A stretch of 64,000 nucleotides of DNA from Escherichia coli (GTDB lineage: Bacteria > Pseudomonadota > Gammaproteobacteria > Enterobacterales > Enterobacteriaceae), in NCBI RefSeq assembly GCF_003991155.1, contig NZ_CP031293.1; one strand, 5' to 3'. Shown in pieces: positions 2,982 through 51,208 of this stretch. The translations under genes were made by a program, and so were the position numbers. The notes below the pieces were generated by a model. The model searched no databases and had not been told where the DNA came from. It was given only the letters and a program-made list of their open reading frames with translations. Each line of letters begins with the position of its first letter. The first letter of the stretch is position 1.

Positions 2982-3073
2982 CTGACAAATATCAATTAAC
3001 AATTGATGATTTTGCCAACAGCCTACATAGCGCGATATACTGAAAATTCTCGCAGCAACTGAATGTTAAGCCT

Positions 3074-39784: not shown

Positions 39785-42091
39785 CTACATTCCATAACGT
39801 TCAGAAATAGCAGCATGCTTCTCTTCATTCGCCCCGGCTTCTTTGGCAAGACGCCACCAGCACAACGGATGTTCCCAGTCAGCGGTCAATTCGTGCAAGG
39901 TCTTATCGATATCACCTTTAGAAACTGAACGCGGCGCGCTGATAACAAAGTAGAACGCGGGCAGCGGCTGTGCATCTTCTCCCTGCTGGCTGTCCGTTAA
40001 CGTATAGTCCTCGTTACTGTTGCTCCAGTAGTACCAGTTTCGTTCACGGAGCGCCTCACGGAAGGCATTAAACTGTTCTTCACCAGGCATGACACCTTCG
40101 CAGAACCAGGACTCGCCGTACTCAGTCGGGATAATGGTTTGCAGGCAGGCATAAAGTGGCGTGAAATTCTTCCGTTCTTCCTCATCCTCTGGTTGGGTGT
40201 TCAATATTTCCGCATCGAATACCACAACTTCATCAACATGTTGCGGATAATCGGTCCGGTAAGTTGGCTCAATGATCCTTGCTGTTACCGGCCCAATACG
40301 TTGAGCATAGTAATAGCGGTATTCATAATTTTCCCGGAAGCGAATGTTTAGCAGTCCCCATTTTTCGTCGATAAAACCTTCACCTTCCGTAAGTTCGATT
40401 TCCAGTTCAGCTGCAATAGCACGAACCAATTCCCATTGTTGCAGGATGCTGGCGGTCGCCATGATATCCCACTGGATATTACGAATATCTTCTTCACGGC
40501 TAATCATCAGTTGCTGCAATTGTTGTAAATAATCCAGCTGTCGATCCCAGGCTTCCTGTTTTTGTGCTGCCCAGGAGCACATGCGATAAACGCCGATCCA
40601 CTCACGCCCTTTTTCGTTTTGCAGCAACTGGTGCCCAATCGACTCGAGTTCACTCCAGTCTTCCTGTTGGTTGATCACTCGCGCACGGAACCACAAGGCC
40701 ATATGTAGCAGCCCCGCCTGTTCATACTGCTTCGCCAGGTGCTCAATGGTTTGCAGATCGTCACGGTGGAGCAATAAATCCAACAGATCGAAGCAAAGAC
40801 CATTATCTTCCTGGATGTGGCTTTCGACGTAGCGTTGCAGAAGTTCAATCGACTCATCAATCGCATTACAGGCGTTTAACGCATTGACCAGTTTGCCCAG
40901 CAATTCCGCATCATCTGGCGCGTTCAGGTAAGCGCGGCGGAATGTTTCGACGTCTTTTTCTGGATCTGGCTGCGTTTCTTCATCGCTATTTTCAGGTATT
41001 TCTACAACCGGACGAGCAAGCAACTCTGCTTCTTTGGCGGCGATTTTTTCACTCAGTTCGAGAAACTCACGATCAACCCCCAGTAACACGCGTAATTTTG
41101 GCATGTGTCGCTGGGCCAGTTTCATCGCTATTTTGGCAACCCAGACGGATTCACGCTCCAGCGCCAGGGTAATTTGCAGTTTCGCCAGATCAACCACTTT
41201 GCGGTGCGCTCCGGCCTGCGAGCGGTGCTCCAGTATTTTTTGGATGATGCGCGCCAGTTGCCAGTTGTTTCTTTGTGGATGACGGGGAAGTAACACAGTA
41301 ATGATTTTCAGCCATGACCCCCATGAATGGGGAGTCAGATCTGACCAACGCGGTAATTCCTCCCAGACTTCTTCGTCCTGCCCGCATAACGCCATGATGT
41401 ACAGTTTTTTGAGGTGATTACTAATGCGGTCGCGGCCCCAGTAATCATTGGCTTCTGTCAGCTCATCAATCAGTATGCGTGCTTCATCATAACGCTGAAG
41501 TTCAATCAGAATATCGGCACGAGTATAAAGTAATGCATCAATATCATCTTCCCCGGCTGCTTTAACTGCGTCGATTTGTCGATCCAGATAAGCCAGTGCC
41601 TCCTCTATTCTTTTGGAATCTATCAGTGCACTGGCATATTCAGTGGACAAACACTGAAAACAGCTCCAGGTCGGATCAATCCGCGCGATGGTTTCTTCAC
41701 ATACCGCCATACGTTCATTCGCCCAGCCAGGTGCATCAATATTTTCGTAGCAGGCGGATAAATCCTGGGTAACGCAGATAGATTGTGGGCAATCTTTTGT
41801 CTCTTCCCGGTGCGCTTTTTCAAACAGCGCTACCACGTCTGGCAGCACCTTTTCACCTTCTTCATAGTTAGTCAGGCGATGACGCATTTCCCAGTGACCA
41901 ATAAATATTTCCAGCCACGGATTTTTTGCCACCTGGGTAAGTGCTTTTACTTCAGGTAACAGCGAATCGCACTTTTCCATTTGCAGGTGCATAACGCCTT
42001 CCGAATAATCATCGATAAGTTGCGGAATATACTCCTGCCCGGCATCGCGTAACTCCTTAGTATATTTGTGATACCACTCCCATATATCCAT
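39785..42091 (-). CDS. Hypothetical 768-aa largely helical protein, partner of the Hsp90-like ATPase (translationally coupled); strain-specific
   Basis: ATG at 42089-42091 sits 1 nt from the upstream gene's stop (42093-42095); Trp- and Glu-rich, no catalytic motif I can recognise. Confidence 0.6.
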   Translation of the reverse strand: MDIWEWYHKYTKELRDAGQEYIPQLIDDYSEGVMHLQMEKCDSLLPEVKALTQVAKNPWLEIFIGHWEMRHRLTNYEEGEKVLPDVVALFEKAHREETKDCPQSICVTQDLSACYENIDAPGWANERMAVCEETIARIDPTWSCFQCLSTEYASALIDSKRIEEALAYLDRQIDAVKAAGEDDIDALLYTRADILIELQRYDEARILIDELTEANDYWGRDRISNHLKKLYIMALCGQDEEVWEELPRWSDLTPHSWGSWLKIITVLLPRHPQRNNWQLARIIQKILEHRSQAGAHRKVVDLAKLQITLALERESVWVAKIAMKLAQRHMPKLRVLLGVDREFLELSEKIAAKEAELLARPVVEIPENSDEETQPDPEKDVETFRRAYLNAPDDAELLGKLVNALNACNAIDESIELLQRYVESHIQEDNGLCFDLLDLLLHRDDLQTIEHLAKQYEQAGLLHMALWFRARVINQQEDWSELESIGHQLLQNEKGREWIGVYRMCSWAAQKQEAWDRQLDYLQQLQQLMISREEDIRNIQWDIMATASILQQWELVRAIAAELEIELTEGEGFIDEKWGLLNIRFRENYEYRYYYAQRIGPVTARIIEPTYRTDYPQHVDEVVVFDAEILNTQPEDEEERKNFTPLYACLQTIIPTEYGESWFCEGVMPGEEQFNAFREALRERNWYYWSNSNEDYTLTDSQQGEDAQPLPAFYFVISAPRSVSKGDIDKTLHELTADWEHPLCWWRLAKEAGANEEKHAAISERYGM

Positions 42092-42092
42092 T

Positions 42093-43928
42093 TTATTTTC
42101 CTTGATTAATTAAGACAGGAATAACCTGAGTAAAATCTTCCAGTGCCTGGTGTAAATCCCAATGCTGTTCTTTATTACCGCTGGAGCACAAAATCACTTT
42201 CAGCGATTTTAATAAGCGTAATGCCGCTGCGGGCTGTTGCTGGTGTTGTAATGCCGTCACCAGTTGCATGATGCAAGGGTTATTAAGGTTGATGTATAAA
42301 CTTGAGGTTTTCGTTTTTTGGATTTGTGAAGTAAATTGCCGCGCCAGCATTAACGCTGCGGTGCTGATGCGTTTATCTGCGTCATCCTGTTCGAGAATTT
42401 GTTTTAATTCTGCTTCGCGGTCTGGCGTAACCACTAACGGTAAAACGGCGGGTTCGAAGCGGGAGATAATTAATTGCTCGCCATCGCAGAGATGCTCTTC
42501 CAGATAAGCTACCTGCTCTTCGGGTAATTCCGCCAGGCTGAACAACTGCTCATTACCTGTTTGCGTACCGACTTCGACAATCCGGCAGTGATATAACAGC
42601 GCCCAGCGACGTAAAAATGGCACGACGGCATAGCGATCGCCACGGGCAACGGGCCGTTGCAGAATGTGGAACAACATCTCTTCAAAACCGCCGTCGCGGC
42701 TTAACAGAATATGAATGCTGTTATTAACGCGTAAATCCTTCGCCAGCAACGCCCCTTTTGACGTTGGCACCTGCAAGCGATCTTTGAGCAAATCAAACAG
42801 ACGGTCATCACATAATGCCGCACCGAGCAACGCTTCGTTGTGGCGCATTAATACACGCCGCCAGATTTCTGGCTGATTTTGTGCGAGATCGGACAAACCA
42901 GAAATCAGCGCCTCTTTTAACGCCTCCTGCACCGCAACCCAGGTTTCGTCCCGCTGGAGATCTTCCCGGCTCGCCGTAGGCGTTAGTTTCGATGACTCAA
43001 TCACGCCGCCAATAAATCCGGCCCAGGGAGGTAACAACTCACGCGCTTCATCATCCAGTAACATACCGCGCAAAAACAGCGACAGGTTGCGGTTATCGCT
43101 GGTGCCGTAGGTTGCGCCATCCTGAATCCATAAAATCCCAACCGCGTCGCTCATCCCCACGGGCACCACCGGAATGGTGCAAATCGGTTCGAAGGAGGAT
43201 TCAAACTGGGCGGCAAAGGCGAGATTTTTACGCTGTACCAGCGCGCGGTGCATGGTTACGCCTTCGGGGGCAACTTCACGCCACGGTGGTTGAAGTTTAT
43301 TTACCGGCTCGCTGGCATCGCCGACATAGACCGGTTCGTGCAGCAATATACAGTAGCGGGAAAGAACGCGGTTCAGCAAATTGTTACTCGCCAGATGGCT
43401 GTACTCTTCTTTGAGCGTCAGAATCACCTGCGTACCCGTTTCCGAGGACTGATGCGGCGTAACGGTATATTTTTGCCCGTCGGTAGAGTGGTATTTCCAG
43501 CTCTGATCCGGCGTTTGCCAGGATGTGGTCAACACCGTGACCTCTTTCGCCAACACAAAGGCCGACAAAAAACCGAGGCCGAACATACCAATTAAACCGG
43601 TGTTGTCATCCTGCTGGCGCAACATTCGGGTATAACCCACGCCTACTGTCGCCAGGAAGCCGTGAATTTCACTTTCTGTCAGTCCAGCGCCAGTATCGCT
43701 AATAGTGATAGTGGACTTCGCCACGTCTGCCACCACACGAATCGCGTTATCCTTTGGCGCATCGGGCTGCTCAATCCTGCGGCGAACGATCGCATCATGG
43801 CCGTTCTGCACCAGCTCGCGCACGGCAACCACGGGAGTGGAGTAAAGATGCTTACTGAGCACCTCAATTAAGCCGTTTAAATTAACTTCTGTAGAATATG
43901 AACTACCAGGTAACTGTAATGTACTCAT
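42093..43928 (-). CDS. Hsp90/HtpG-like GHKL ATPase (paralog of htpG, not the housekeeping gene); strain-specific
   Basis: 611-aa ORF with Bergerat-fold motifs in Hsp90 spacing: E38-x3-N42-x2-D45-A (ELVQNGHDA), D78-T-G-A-G-L-T, G114-MFGLGFLSAF. Confidence 0.7.
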   Translation of the reverse strand: MSTLQLPGSSYSTEVNLNGLIEVLSKHLYSTPVVAVRELVQNGHDAIVRRRIEQPDAPKDNAIRVVADVAKSTITISDTGAGLTESEIHGFLATVGVGYTRMLRQQDDNTGLIGMFGLGFLSAFVLAKEVTVLTTSWQTPDQSWKYHSTDGQKYTVTPHQSSETGTQVILTLKEEYSHLASNNLLNRVLSRYCILLHEPVYVGDASEPVNKLQPPWREVAPEGVTMHRALVQRKNLAFAAQFESSFEPICTIPVVPVGMSDAVGILWIQDGATYGTSDNRNLSLFLRGMLLDDEARELLPPWAGFIGGVIESSKLTPTASREDLQRDETWVAVQEALKEALISGLSDLAQNQPEIWRRVLMRHNEALLGAALCDDRLFDLLKDRLQVPTSKGALLAKDLRVNNSIHILLSRDGGFEEMLFHILQRPVARGDRYAVVPFLRRWALLYHCRIVEVGTQTGNEQLFSLAELPEEQVAYLEEHLCDGEQLIISRFEPAVLPLVVTPDREAELKQILEQDDADKRISTAALMLARQFTSQIQKTKTSSLYINLNNPCIMQLVTALQHQQQPAAALRLLKSLKVILCSSGNKEQHWDLHQALEDFTQVIPVLINQGK

Positions 43929-44237: not shown

Positions 44238-45074
44238 TTAATTATGAATCAATCGCTGCGGATGAGTATAAACCGTTGCCCGACCCGGTTTACAAAAACC
44301 TACCAGTGTCAGATTACAGCGTTCAGCCACTTCTACAGCAAGTGTGGTCGCGGCAGATACCGCAAACAAAATCTCTACGCCACACATCGCTGACTTTTGC
44401 ACCATTTCATAACTGGCACGGCTGGAAACCAGCACCGCACCTTGCTGCCAGCTTTCCCCTTCTTGTGACCGGCGGCCTAACAGTTTGTCCAGCGCCACAT
44501 GGCGACCCACGTCTTCATGCCCGCCGACCAGTTCGCCAGATGGCAACATCCATGCAGCGGCGTGAGTACAACCAGTCAGTTGCCCCACTGGCTGGAAATC
44601 ATTGAGATGACGTAATGCATCATCCAGTTTGTTGAGATCAAACGTCTGGGTGAATGGCAGCGGCTGCACCGGTTTACCGATGTCATTAAGTTGCTCCACG
44701 CCGCATACGCCACAGCCCGTACGCCCCGCCAGCGCCCGGCGACGTTCCTTCAACCCCATAAAGCGGCGGCTGGAAAGCTCAATTTGAACTTCAAGACCAT
44801 TACAGGAAGGAACGACATCCATGCCAAAGATATCGCGCGGACTTTCGATTATCCCCTCGGAAAGCGAAAAACCGAGCGCAAAGTACTCAAGGTCTTTGGG
44901 CGACGCCATCATCACCACATGCGAAATGCCGTTGTAGACCAGCGCAACGGGAACCTCTTCCGCCACCTCATCTAACCGTGGGTGTTGTAAATCATCACGC
45001 CGCCATAACTCAATTTGACGAACACCTGTGATATTTGTCACATTTTCGATTTCTTTTTGCTGTGTTTTTTTCAC
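44238..45074 (-). CDS. fdhD: Formate dehydrogenase sulfurtransferase FdhD
   Basis: 278-aa [37 protein letters not shown]... Confidence 0.93.
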
Positions 45075-45267
45075 TTTCTCTTAACCAGATAAGAACACAC
45101 ACACCAACATTATGGTATTCTGTTACAAACCCTTCCTGGATGGAGGGAAATTGAGCCAATTCTGGACCTTTGCGGCCCCTTCCGCAAAGAAAAATAACTC
45201 CCACTCCCTGCACACGCAGCAAGCGAATGTAAATGGGACGTGACAATGTCGAAACAAGGAGCAATCC

Positions 45268-48200
45268 ATGCAGGTCAGCAGAAGGCAGTTCTTTAAGATC
45301 TGCGCTGGCGGTATGGCAGGCACCACGGCAGCGGCACTGGGTTTTGCACCCAGCGTAGCACTCGCGGAAACCCGGCAGTATAAACTGCTGCGCACCCGCG
45401 AAACCCGTAATACCTGCACCTATTGTTCCGTAGGCTGTGGGCTGTTGATGTACAGCCTCGGTGACGGAGCAAAAAACGCCAAAGCATCTATCTTCCATAT
45501 CGAAGGCGATCCGGATCACCCGGTCAACCGCGGTGCACTTTGTCCGAAAGGCGCTGGCCTGGTGGATTTCATCCACTCCGAAAGCCGCCTGAAGTTTCCG
45601 GAATACCGTGCGCCAGGTTCTGATAAATGGCAACAAATCAGTTGGGAAGAGGCGTTTGATCGCATCGCCAAACTGATGAAAGAAGACCGCGATGCGAACT
45701 ACATTGCGCAAAACGCCGAAGGCGTGACTGTTAACCGCTGGCTCTCCACCGGGATGCTGTGTGCTTCCGCGTCGAGTAACGAAACCGGCTATTTAACGCA
45801 AAAATTCTCCCGCGCGCTGGGGATGCTCGCGGTCGACAACCAGGCGCGTGTCTGACACGGACCAACGGTAGCAAGTCTTGCTCCAACATTTGGTCGCGGT
45901 GCGATGACCAACCACTGGGTCGACATCAAGAACGCCAACCTCGTCGTGGTGATGGGCGGTAACGCCGCTGAAGCTCACCCGGTCGGGTTCCGCTGGGCGA
46001 TGGAAGCCAAAATTCACAACGGCGCGAAGCTGATTGTGATCGATCCTCGCTTTACACGTACGGCGGCGGTGGCTGACTACTATGCCCCTATTCGTTCCGG
46101 TACTGACATTGCTTTCCTGTCAGGCGTATTGCTGTACCTGCTGAACAATGAAAAATTCAACCGCGAATACACCGAAGCCTATACCAACGCCAGCCTGATC
46201 GTGCGTGAGGATTACGGCTTTGAAGATGGCCTGTTCACCGGCTACGACGCGGAAAAACGCAAGTACGATAAATCCAGCTGGACCTACGAGCTGGACGAAA
46301 ACGGCTTCGCCAAACGCGATACCACGCTGCAACATCCGCGCTGCGTGTGGAACTTGCTGAAACAGCACGTTTCCCGTTATACGCCAGATGTGGTTGAAAA
46401 CATCTGCGGTACGCCAAAAGACGCGTTCCTGAAAGTCTGCGAATACATCGCCGAAACCAGTGCTCACGATAAAACTGCCTCGTTCCTTTACGCGCTCGGC
46501 TGGACGCAACACTCCATTGGTGCGCAAAACATTCGTACGATGGCGATGATCCAGCTGCTGCTCGGCAACATGGGGATGGCAGGCGGCGGCGTTAACGCCC
46601 TGCGCGGTCACTCCAATATTCAGGGGCTGACCGACCTGGGGCTACTGTCGCAGAGTCTGCCAGGTTACATGACGTTGCCAAGCGAGAAGCAGACCGATCT
46701 GCAAACTTACCTCGCTGCCAACACGCCAAAACCACTGCTGGAAGGCCAGGTCAACTACTGGGGCAACTACCCGAAATTCTTCGTCTCTATGATGAAGGCC
46801 TTCTTTGGTGATAAAGCGACGGCGGAAAATAGCTGGGGCTTTGACTGGTTGCCGAAGTGGGATAAAGGCTACGACGTCCTGCAATACTTCGAGATGATGA
46901 AAGAGGGCAAGGTCAATGGCTATATCTGCCAGGGCTTTAACCCTGTTGCCTCATTCCCGAACAAAAACAAAGTGATCGGCTGTCTGTCGAAGCTGAAATT
47001 CCTCGTGACTATCGACCCGCTGAACACTGAAACCTCTAACTTCTGGCAGAACCACGGTGAGCTGAACGAAGTTGACTCGTCGAAGATCCAGACCGAAGTG
47101 TTCCGTCTGCCATCGACCTGCTTTGCGGAAGAGAACGGTTCAATCGTCAACTCTGGTCGCTGGTTGCAGTGGCACTGGAAAGGTGCGGACGCCCCGGGGA
47201 TTGCGCTGACTGACGGCGAGATCCTCTCCGGTATCTTCCTGCGCTTGCGCAAGATGTATGCCGAACAGGGTGGCGCGAACCCGGACCAGGTGCTGAACAT
47301 GACCTGGAACTACGCCATTCCGCATGAGCCATCTTCAGAAGAAGTGGCGATGGAGAGCAACGGCAAAGCGCTGGCCGATATTACCGACCCGGCAACCGGT
47401 GCGGTTATCGTCAAGAAAGGCCAACAACTTAGCTCGTTCGCCCAACTGCGCGATGACGGTACAACCTCCTGTGGCTGCTGGATTTTCGCCGGTAGCTGGA
47501 CGCCGGAAGGCAACCAGATGGCGCGTCGTGATAACGCCGATCCGTCTGGCCTCGGTAACACGCTGGGCTGGGCATGGGCATGGCCGCTTAACCGCCGCAT
47601 TCTGTATAACCGCGCCTCCGCAGATCCGCAGGGTAACCCATGGGATCCGAAGCGTCAGTTGCTGAAATGGGACGGCACTAAGTGGACCGGCTGGGATATT
47701 CCGGATTACAGCGCAGCGCCTCCGGGCAGCGGCGTAGGGCCGTTTATCATGCAGCAGGAAGGCATGGGACGTCTGTTTGCCCTCGATAAGATGGCGGAAG
47801 GTCCGTTCCCGGAACACTACGAGCCGTTTGAAACGCCGCTGGGAACTAACCCGCTGCATCCAAACGTTATCTCGAACCCGGCTGCGCGAATCTTTAAAGA
47901 CGACGCCGAAGCATTGGGTAAAGCCGATAAGTTCCCGTATGTCGGAACCACCTATCGTCTGACCGAGCACTTCCACTACTGGACCAAACACGCGCTGTTG
48001 AACGCGATTTTGCAACCAGAGCAGTTTGTGGAAATCGGGGAGTCGCTGGCGAATAAACTTGGCATTGCCCAGGGCGATACTGTGAAAGTCTCCTCCAACC
48101 GTGGCTATATCAAAGCCAAAGCGGTAGTGACCAAACGTATTCGCACGCTGAAAGCAAACGGCAAAGATATCGATACCATCGGTATTCCGATTCACTGGGG

Positions 48201-48318
48201 CTATGAAGGTGTTGCGAAAAAAGGCTTTATTGCCAATACGTTGACGCCATTCGTCGGTGATGCGAACACGCAGACGCCGGAGTTTAAGTCCTTCCTTGTG
48301 AATGTGGAAAAGGTGTAA
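45268..48318 (+). CDS. fdoG: Formate dehydrogenase-O major subunit (selenoprotein; in-frame UGA at 45853-45855 read as selenocysteine 196; Tat signal RRQFFK)
   Basis: Track ORFs 45268..45855 and 45904..48318 are in the same frame, separated only by TGA; downstream stem-loop consistent with a SECIS element. Confidence 0.93.
45853..45900 (+). promoter_or_regulatory. Sec-UGA codon plus downstream SECIS-like stem-loop of fdoG
   Basis: UGA followed by hairpin-forming sequence (ggtagcaagtcttgctcc); recoding element. Confidence 0.6.
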
Positions 48319-48330
48319 CGGAGACGACAT

Positions 48331-49233
48331 ATGGCTTATCAATCGCAAGATATCATTCGTCGTTCCGCGACTAACGGTCTGACCCCCGCGCCTCAGGCGC
48401 GGGACTTCCAGGAAGAAGTGGCGAAACTCATCGACGTCACCACCTGTATCGGCTGTAAAGCCTGTCAGGTGGCGTGTTCAGAGTGGAACGACATTCGCGA
48501 TACCGTCGGCAATAACATTGGGGTGTACGACAACCCCAATGATTTAAGTGCCAAATCGTGGACGGTGATGCGATTCTCGGAAGTGGAGCAGAACGACAAA
48601 CTGGAATGGCTGATCCGCAAAGACGGCTGTATGCACTGTTCCGATCCAGGCTGCCTGAAAGCGTGCCCGGCGGAAGGGGCAATTATTCAGTATGCCAACG
48701 GTATCGTCGACTTCCAGTCCGAGCAGTGCATCGGCTGCGGTTATTGCATTGCGGGCTGTCCGTTCGACATTCCGCGCCTCAACCCGGAAGACAACCGCGT
48801 CTACAAATGTACGTTGTGCGTTGACCGCGTGGTGGTTGGGCAAGAACCGGCCTGCGTGAAGACCTGCCCAACGGGCGCGATTCACTTCGGTACGAAAGAG
48901 TCGATGAAAACGCTGGCGAGCGAGCGCGTGGCGGAGCTGAAAACCCGTGGTTACGACAATGCGGGTTTGTACGACCCGGCAGGCGTCGGTGGTACACATG
49001 TTATGTACGTGCTGCACCATGCTGACAAGCCAAATCTGTATCATGGCTTGCCGGAGAACCCGGAAATCAGCGAAACCGTGAAATTCTGGAAAGGCATCTG
49101 GAAACCGCTCGCAGCTGTTGGCTTTGCGGCTACCTTCGCAGCCAGTATCTTCCACTACGTGGGTGTCGGTCCGAACCGTGCGGATGAGGAAGAGAATAAT
49201 CTGCACGAAGAGAAAGACGAGGAGCGCAAATGA
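48331..49233 (+). CDS. fdoH: Formate dehydrogenase-O iron-sulfur subunit
   Basis: 300-aa ORF with 4 Cys-x2-Cys-x2-Cys-x3-Cys ferredoxin motifs and a C-terminal TM helix. Confidence 0.95.
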
Positions 49234-49865
49234 AACGACGTGACACCATCGTGCGCTACACCGCGCCGGAACGTATCAACCACTGGATCACCGCCTTCTG
49301 CTTCATCCTGGCGGCGGTGAGCGGGCTGGGCTTTTTGTTCCCGTCCTTCAACTGGTTGATGCAAATCATGGGCACACCGCAGCTGGCGCGCATTCTGCAC
49401 CCGTTTGTCGGCGTGGTTATGTTTGCCTCGTTCATCATCATGTTTTTCCGTTACTGGCATCACAACCTAATCAATCGGGATGATATCTTTTGGGCGAAGA
49501 ATATTCGTAAGATCGTCGTCAACGAGGAAGTAGGTGACACCGGGCGTTATAACTTCGGTCAGAAATGCGTTTTCTGGGCGGCGATTATTTTCCTGGTTCT
49601 GCTGCTGGTGAGCGGCGTGATTATCTGGCGTCCTTATTTTGCGCCTGCTTTCTCAATCCCGGTGATCCGATTCGCGTTAATGCTGCATTCATTTGCCGCA
49701 GTGGCGTTAATTGTGGTTATCATGGTGCATATCTACGCCGCCCTTTGGGTAAAAGGCACGATTACCGCCATGGTGGAAGGATGGGTGACCAGCGCCTGGG
49801 CGAAGAAACATCACCCGCGCTGGTACCGTGAGGTCCGCAAGACAACGGAAAAGAAAGCTGAATGA
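49230..49865 (+). CDS. fdoI: Formate dehydrogenase-O cytochrome b556 subunit
   Basis: 211-aa ORF, 4 TM helices. Confidence 0.93.
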
Positions 49866-50791
49866 GTATTCGCATAATCCCGCAAGATGAGCTGGGTTCG
49901 AGCGAGAAACGTACGGCGGATATGATTCCGCCGTTATTGTTCCCTCGGCTCAAGAATTTATACAACCGCCGCGCCGAGCGTCTGCGCGAGCTGGCAGAAA
50001 ATAATCCGCTGGGTGATTACCTGCGCTTTGCTGCGCTTATCGCCCACGCCCAGGAAGTGGTGCTGTACGACCATCCGCTGGAGATGGATCTGACCACGCG
50101 CATTAAAGAAGCCAGCGCACAAGGCAAGCCCCCGCTGGATATTCACGTTCTGCCGCGTGATAAGCACTGGCAAAAGCTGCTGATGGCGCTGATTGCTGAG
50201 CTGAAACCTGAAATGAGCGGCCCGGCGCTGGCAGTGATTGAGAATCTGGAGAAGGCATCGACTCAGGAGCTGGAAGATATGGCCAGCGCACTGTTTGCCT
50301 CTGATTTCTCGTCCGTCAGCAGCGATAAAGCGCCGTTTATCTGGGCTGCGCTGTCGCTCTACTGGGCGCAGATGGCTAATCTGATCCCCGGCAAAGCCCG
50401 CGCTGAATACGGCGAACAACGTCAATATTGCCCGGTATGTGGCTCTATGCCGGTGTCCAGCATGGTGCAAATTGGCACCACTCAGGGGCTGCGTTACCTG
50501 CACTGCAACCTGTGTGAAACCGAATGGCACGTAGTGCGCGTAAAATGCAGCAACTGTGAACAGAGCGGCAAACTGCATTACTGGTCGCTGGATGACGAAC
50601 AGGCCGCGATTAAAGCCGAAAGCTGCGATGACTGCGGCACTTACCTGAAGATTCTTTATCAGGAAAAAGAACCGAAAGTTGAAGCCGTGGCAGATGACCT
50701 CGCCTCTCTGGTACTGGACGCGCGAATGGAGCAAGAAGGCTATGCCCGTAGTTCCATCAACCCGTTCCTGTTCCCGGGTGAAGGGGAGTAA
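49862..50791 (+). CDS. fdhE: Formate dehydrogenase accessory protein FdhE
   Basis: 309-aa ORF with CxxC pairs ([27 protein letters not shown]). Confidence 0.93.
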
Positions 50792-50827: not shown

Positions 50828-51208
50828 TTACAGCTCATAGGGTGTGACGACACCTGCTATTCCCGCAAAATCTCTCGTATTTCGCGTTACCAGTTCAAAG
50901 CCATAAATCTGTGCTGTTGCCAGAATAATGGCATCTGGAAGTTTCATTCTATACTCCTGCCTTAAAGCAACGCTTCGTTCCGCGATATCCTGCGAAATCC
51001 CAATAACGTTAAACGCACTCATTGCAATCCGTGTGCGATGTTCTTGATCATATTTTTTTGCGCCAACCAGCACCTCCATCCATGTGACCAGACTAATCGC
51101 ATTCTGTAGGGGCCATGCCTCCAGAGCCTGTTTTGCCTCAATTCGTCCGCTGAACAAATCGATAAGGATATTGGTATCAAAAAGCGCAGTTCTTTTTGCC
51201 ATTACCAT
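50828..51208 (-). CDS. PIN-domain ribonuclease toxin (VapC-like); start overlaps the stop of yiiF
   Basis: 126-aa ORF with the four PIN acidic residues at D11 (LFDTNILID), E45, D92, D113; ATG-GTA-ATG overlaps the yiiF TAA. Confidence 0.7.

Follow-up and report, generated by a model that had tools for sequence, protein, structure and literature searches.

An in-frame UGA codon followed by a bacterial SECIS element in Escherichia coli fdoG: one selenoprotein gene called as two open reading frames

Mechanical gene calling breaks the region between positions 45268 and 48318 of a 64,000-nucleotide stretch of Escherichia coli DNA (hereafter the window) into two open reading frames, which raises the question of whether this locus holds two genes, one damaged gene, or a single intact gene whose internal stop codon is read as an amino acid. 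The program-made ORF list places the two frames at 45268..45855 (195 amino acids) and 45904..48318 (804 amino acids), both on the plus strand. Their starts lie 636 nucleotides apart, which equals 212 codons and puts them in a common frame. When translated as a whole, 45268..48318 (+) is one frame of 1017 codons with a terminal TAA, and its sole internal stop is the TGA at codon 196 (45853-45855). The frame is open onward from 45856, and position 45904 is the first ATG past the TGA, hence the start chosen by the ORF finder. The initial annotation of this region had described two same-frame ORFs split only by this TGA, and the single 1017-codon frame bears out that description. A frame change, or further stops between the two segments, was what it gave as evidence against a single gene; both were looked for by translation and are absent.

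We are highly confident that this region is fdoG, one cistron that encodes the 1016-residue catalytic subunit of formate dehydrogenase-O (FDH-O), and that UGA 196 is read as selenocysteine (Sec) by means of a SECIS element. Direct support for this reading comes from the one frame with its one UGA, the identity of the gene, the match to a SECIS model, covariation in the hairpin, synonymous sites that are frozen, and purifying selection on the part 3′ of the UGA. The gene, which specifies the alpha (catalytic, molybdopterin) subunit, comprises 1016 residues plus a stop at 45268..48318 (+), with Sec at residue 196. It is preceded by a putative Shine-Dalgarno sequence, AAGGAG (45256..45261, +), which can be read 6 nucleotides ahead of the ATG at 45268. 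Residues 1-33 (45268..45366, +) form a predicted Tat (twin-arginine) signal peptide with an SRRQFFK motif in the translation, an assignment that we draw from general knowledge of FdnG and FdoG Tat signals, with presumed cleavage at ...VALA|E.

E. coli carries two paralogous genes of this kind, fdoG and fdnG. The fdn enzyme is nitrate-induced and anaerobic, and expression of the fdo enzyme is aerobic and constitutive. In a codon-level comparison, the window gene and K-12 MG1655 fdoG (b3894) are equal in length at 3051 nucleotides and share 97.8% nucleotide and 99.8% amino acid identity. The K-12 gene is annotated as a single 3051-nucleotide CDS and likewise has TGA at codon 196, so the alignment to K-12 FdoG that the initial annotation had proposed as a check returns the same gene with the same codon in the same place. 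Only two amino acid changes, I417V and A483T, distinguish the window protein from K-12 FdoG. The window protein is also matched by the NCBIfam profile TIGR01553 over residues 2-1015 (1572.7 bits) and by the Pfam families PF04879 (Fe4S4), PF00384 and PF01568 (MGD-binding).

The surrounding genes are those of the fdo locus. Immediately downstream, on the same strand, lie fdoH (48331..49233), for the Fe-S beta subunit (TIGR01582, 478.7 bits, and the RefSeq annotation of an identical strain); fdoI (49230..49865), for the cytochrome b556 gamma subunit; and fdhE (49862..50791), for a formate dehydrogenase accessory protein (NF002925, 603.5 bits). On the minus strand, fdhD (44238..45074), for a sulfurtransferase that serves the molybdenum cofactor, is transcribed divergently (TIGR00129, 339.2 bits; the matching strain and K-12 carry the same annotation). 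This fdoGHI-fdhE operon with divergent fdhD reproduces the layout of the K-12 fdo locus. The window and K-12 share the length of fdoG, the Sec196 codon, the operon and the divergent fdhD, and the SECIS region is without differences. The K-12 locus differs in its flanking accessory genes, which are unlike those of the window, whereas fdoG itself is the same gene with 66 nucleotide differences. Upstream of fdhD, the window carries a two-gene insertion in which PADLOC gave no defence system, just a weak match to a TmtA-like ATPase.

Given that the NCBI annotation pipeline PGAP calls a 100%-identical gene ‘fdnG, formate dehydrogenase-N subunit alpha’, it is fair to ask whether the window gene is instead fdnG, which encodes the nitrate-inducible FDH-N. 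The best NCBIfam model, TIGR01553, also bears the FDH-N name. However, the window protein is 99.8% identical to K-12 FdoG but only 77% identical, over the full length, to its K-12 paralogue FdnG (75% at the nucleotide level), and fdoI scores 453.3 bits with the FDH-O type model NF007924 versus 243.6 bits with the FDH-N gamma model. The neighbouring fdoH, fdoI, fdhE and divergent fdhD are those of fdo, whereas the K-12 fdnGHI genes are flanked by yddG and yddM. Moreover, complete E. coli genomes contain a median of two places that match this region, and the second, separate match is the real fdnG. We consider it very improbable that the window gene is fdnG. The ‘fdnG’ label that RefSeq and PGAP give in many strains is inherited from how TIGR01553, an equivalog model, is named, and is a naming quirk rather than a contradiction. 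By sequence and synteny, the gene at 45268-48318 is best identified as the ortholog of b3894 and not as fdnG; it is E. coli fdoG, the name that the initial annotation had given it.

If the gene is fdoG, the next issue is whether its two ORFs could nonetheless be separate genes, one for a 195-amino-acid Fe4S4 protein that ends at the TGA and another for an 804-amino-acid protein with its own start at ATG 45904. Both ORFs do exist, and the second does open with an ATG. However, the 48-nucleotide gap between them (45856-45903) is in frame and encodes HGPTVASLAPTFGRGA, a highly conserved motif that aligns with FdnG. Furthermore, the TGA severs the Molybdopterin domain PF00384, such that positions 1-67 of the Pfam profile are matched upstream and positions 97-300 downstream. 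The full translation aligns over residues 1-1015 with the crystallised FdnG (PDB 1KQF, chain A), which is one continuous chain in the structure, and the TGA falls opposite the non-standard residue X (Sec) in the 1KQF_A sequence ...DNQARVXHGPTVASLAPTFGRGAMTN.... Further close PDB matches carry the title ‘formate dehydrogenase, alpha subunit, selenocysteine-containing’. Because the gene is also a single CDS in both the K-12 and the RefSeq annotation, we regard the existence of two genes as exceedingly unlikely. K-12 fdnG (b1474), whose product is the protein of 1KQF, shares Sec196 and the order of domains with the window gene, and differs in being a paralogue at another locus.

A single continuous gene could still be a broken one, and the mechanical ORF call that divides it in two is what would be expected if the TGA were a nonsense mutation that had created a pseudogene, or an error of sequencing or assembly. 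The distribution of the codon argues strongly against this explanation. The same TGA occurs in K-12 fdoG, in K-12 fdnG and at 120 or more loci across several phyla, and of 5426 complete E. coli genomes, 5425 contain the region at 80% coverage or more, with several strains 100% identical to it. The pattern of divergence points in the same direction. Codon differences between the window and K-12 fdoG consist of 62 synonymous and 2 non-synonymous changes, and 62 of the 66 nucleotide differences fall 3′ of the TGA, where about 60 are synonymous and 2 non-synonymous. Divergence so dominated by synonymous changes indicates that the part downstream of the UGA is translated and under strong purifying selection. 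In addition, a curated SECIS model is matched directly 3′ of the TGA, as described below. Given these observations, we assign hardly any probability to a pseudogene or an error. The earlier view that this is a known recoding event and not a pseudogene is upheld, since the TGA is conserved and divergence downstream of it is mostly synonymous.

The codon 45853..45855 (+) is therefore to be understood together with the RNA that follows it. It is the only in-frame stop of the gene, occurs as the same codon in K-12 fdoG and fdnG, and stands opposite the X of 1KQF chain A, such that Sec is the probable residue at this position. The Rfam covariance model SECIS_3 (RF01989) matches 45850..45908 (+) over model positions 1-59 with 84.3 bits (E 1.8e-19), over its gathering score of 63, and the hairpin proper occupies 45856-45898. 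The fdhF-type model SECIS_2 (RF01988) reaches only 28.1 bits on the window, under its gathering score of 70, and so the element is grouped with SECIS_3. The proposal that Sec is inserted at FdoG position 196 through UGA and a SECIS element thus gains support from both the K-12 codon and the SECIS_3 score.

The upper stem-loop of the element, GGUAGCAAGUCUUGCUCC, which is the predicted SelB-binding part, spans 18 nucleotides at 45867..45884 (+) and begins 11 nucleotides past the UGA. The 11-nucleotide spacer, CACGGACCAAC, has the same length in K-12 fdnG and fdhF. The determinants of SelB binding have been described as U17, G23 and U24 of a 17-nucleotide minimal SECIS located 11 nucleotides from the UGA (PMC8659212). 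With the U of the UGA taken as position 1, U17 is the bulged base at 45869, and G23 (45875) and U24 (45876) lie in the apical loop.

Comparison with the SECIS elements of fdnG and fdhF, which the initial annotation had called for, reveals that the K-12 fdnG element is the same as that of the window base for base, including the length of the spacer. The fdhF element (FDH-H, Sec140), which is the reference bacterial SECIS, shares the 11-nucleotide spacer, the GGU with its bulged U and the G-U at positions 23-24. However, its upper stem-loop has 17 nucleotides with UGCA/UGCA, whereas that of the window has 18 with AGCA/UGCU. There are also differences from the SECIS_3 consensus, in that two pairs of the upper stem are A-U in E. 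coli but G-C or C-G in the family. In the SECIS_3 register, the lower-stem pairs 8-48 and 12-44 are non-standard in E. coli.

A hairpin directly after the UGA had been anticipated from the sequence, and both ViennaRNA, which folds 45853-45900 into a hairpin with a minimum free energy of -13.8 kcal/mol, and the SECIS_3 match confirm it, though not by energy alone. The folding stability of 45853-45900 is not above background (z = -1.44), and 21 of 200 shuffled sequences fold as well. Thermodynamic stability is no defining feature of SECIS elements, and short hairpins within coding regions often fail such a test. Given that the folding energy is not significant, support for the hairpin rests on the covariance model, on covariation and on frozen synonymous sites.

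Covariation was assessed among homologs gathered by a DNA-pattern scan with GCNCGNGTNTGACAYGGNCCNACNGT, using one genome per species, which is the search that yielded the 120 or more loci with the same TGA. Among the matches listed, 82 distinct homologous 59-mers were aligned, and these span Gamma-, Beta- and Alphaproteobacteria, Acidobacteria, Actinomycetota, Chloroflexi and Desulfovibrio-type genomes. Columns 1-20 of this alignment are partly set by the search pattern, and the free observations are therefore those in columns 21-59. The bulged U is invariant in the alignment because the pattern fixed its column.

When the Rfam structure is imposed on the 82 sequences, the upper helix, formed by columns 18-25 and 29-35, shows pairing in 95.3% of instances, and four of its seven pairs have changed on both sides. 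Pair 24-30 is especially informative, in that it joins two synonymous third positions and occurs as AU in 42 sequences, CG in 32, GC in 3 and other combinations in 5. None of 500 shuffles reached the observed covariation score, and sliding the 3′ partner columns by one to three positions reduced pairing from 88% to between 28 and 50%. Column G26, the equivalent of G23, is at least 90% conserved, and T27, the equivalent of U24, is invariant even though, as the third base of AGU or GGU, it could change synonymously. Pairing is weaker in the lower helix, at 82.5% under either the Rfam or the ViennaRNA register, and the register there is ambiguous.

Frozen synonymous sites provide a further line of evidence. 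In a codon alignment of the window fdoG with K-12 fdnG, the longest identical run is 71 nucleotides (45850-45920) and spans the SECIS element, and the next longest is 36 nucleotides. Within codons 195-215, all 19 of the codons that specify the same amino acid in both genes are identical, whereas in the rest of the gene this holds for 404 of 713 (57%; Fisher p = 2.5e-5). At 21 or more loci, the 59-mer of E. coli recurs without change although the 300-nucleotide flanks are just 70-94% identical to the window. Organism titles cover 19 of these 21 loci, all of them Enterobacterales. The taxa represented include Yersinia, Providencia, Photorhabdus, Citrobacter, Enterobacter, Klebsiella, Moellerella, Superficieibacter and E. 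albertii.

An identical block of this kind could also have arisen by recent gene conversion between the two paralogues rather than by selection on RNA structure, and some of its features fit such an origin. The block ends only at 45920, about 22 nucleotides past the hairpin, and third positions in that extension (columns 51 and 54) vary in distant phyla. However, the retention of the identical 59-mer at these 21 or more loci amid diverged flanks is poorly explained by conversion, and the upper-stem changes seen across phyla are compensatory. Gene conversion as the source of the 71-nucleotide identity is in our judgement unlikely, and although it may add to that identity, the nature of the element would be unaffected. 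Taken together, the covariance model, the covariation and the frozen synonymous sites argue that the hairpin is more than a product of chance, and selection on the RNA remains our preferred explanation for its conservation.

How the element would act can be outlined from established knowledge of related systems. In bacteria, SelB·GTP·Sec-tRNA(Sec) grips the apical stem-loop of the SECIS element through the C-terminal winged-helix domains of SelB and, competing with RF2, brings Sec-tRNA(Sec) to the UGA that occupies the A site, and Sec is the catalytic residue in FDH-N/O-type enzymes (PMC8124441, PMC8659212). In the window gene, the mRNA 3′ of UGA 196 folds into the SECIS structure and presents its apical stem-loop, with the bulged U and the loop G-U, 11 nucleotides on. 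This stem-loop would bind SelB carrying Sec-tRNA(Sec), and the complex would be kept at the ribosome as the UGA enters the A site, where RF2 would compete with the insertion of Sec. Homology with FdnG (1KQF) suggests that the inserted Sec is the protein ligand of molybdenum in the bis-MGD cofactor. We infer each of these four events, namely SelB binding, selenium insertion, RF2 competition and molybdenum ligation, for the gene in the window.

The trans-acting factors are expected to be encoded elsewhere in the genome. None of selA, selB, selC or selD lies within the 64-kb window, which has no tRNA gene, and because these genes are outside it, decoding is not demonstrable from the window alone. 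The K-12 selC (tRNA-Sec) sequence is, however, matched in 5424 of 5426 complete E. coli genomes.

The recoding of fdoG codon 196, its SECIS element and the SelB mechanism are prior knowledge, and Rfam already lists the element. The significance of the present analysis is accordingly confined to annotation and involves no new biology. An ORF caller that ignores recoding cuts fdoG in two or reports a pseudogene, and it is recognition of the UGA together with the SECIS element that keeps this functional respiratory enzyme gene whole.

Two smaller matters concern the regions on either side of the recoding site. In the 5′ UTR of fdoG, the Rfam FdoG1_thermometer model gives a sub-threshold match of 32 bits versus a threshold of 50, and folding of the local sequence does not stand out from that of shuffled sequences (z = -0.41). 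We did not adopt a 5′ UTR thermometer, given its score below the Rfam threshold and its fold z of -0.41. The frozen block of 59-71 nucleotides, which is shared by fdoG and fdnG, is kept among genera of Enterobacterales and runs about 22 nucleotides past the hairpin, might reflect a constraint beyond SelB recruitment, such as tuning of recoding and termination or ribosome pausing, or else recurrent conversion; separately, the FdoG-1 thermometer match might reflect temperature-dependent translation in E. coli. We regard this joint proposal as quite unlikely.

The selenocysteine insertion element of fdoG lies within a longer stretch that its paralogue fdnG shares without change. The two genes are identical over 71 nt (45850-45920, + strand), a block that continues for approximately 22 nt on the 3' side of the SECIS hairpin located immediately downstream of the in-frame UGA codon. 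Furthermore, the 59-nt core of this block is preserved exactly in at least 21 loci, most or all of which belong to other Enterobacterales genera, while the flanking sequences at these loci are 70-94% identical. Judged from sequence, the identity past the hairpin and the preservation of the core point to either an additional constraint on this region or gene conversion between the fdoG and fdnG paralogues.

The fdoG 5' UTR and start region (45099-45297, + strand) matches the Rfam model RF02778, which describes an FdoG-1 5' UTR thermometer, with a score of 32 bits (E = 5e-5), which is sub-threshold given the gathering score of 50 for this model. Good alignment is limited to the 3'-most ~60 nt, which carry the Shine-Dalgarno sequence, the AUG and the first codons. 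In the minimum free energy fold of 45215-45300, the Shine-Dalgarno sequence is paired with 45290-45296, and this fold is not better than those of shuffled sequences (z = -0.41).

Among 5426 complete E. coli genomes, only one lacks an fdoG/fdnG-like match and two lack the tRNA-Sec gene selC. Plasmid-borne copies account for 7 of the 10837 fdoG/fdnG-like matches in the E. coli genome collection. In strains carrying a 100%-identical fdoG, RefSeq/PGAP calls the orthologue 'fdnG, formate dehydrogenase-N subunit alpha', even though the gene so labelled adjoins fdoH and fdoI. This systematic naming quirk stems from the name of the TIGR01553 model.

The K-12 spacer between fdhD and yiiG is 152 bp and holds nothing else, whereas in the window these genes are separated by an inserted pair (39785-43928, - strand). 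One encodes a 611-aa GHKL/Hsp90-like ATPase (PF13589, 38 bits) with a weak PADLOC match to TmtA (22.6 bits), and the other a 768-aa protein for which no match was found apart from TPR. RefSeq labels them 'ATP-binding protein' and 'hypothetical protein'. This insertion is a strain-variable accessory island or, possibly, a defence island.

Directly 3' of fdhE, the annotation of a matching strain (one with an identical fdoG) places a VapC toxin/CopG antitoxin pair (50828-51498, - strand), where K-12 has only the CopG-like yiiF. The window's ORF list also includes a 617-aa ORF (52556-54409, - strand). Between fabY and yiiE, matching-strain annotation shows a transposase and a truncated hypothetical gene (NZ_CP029747.1, 4735825-4737639), and it also records an IS621 copy near cpxA.
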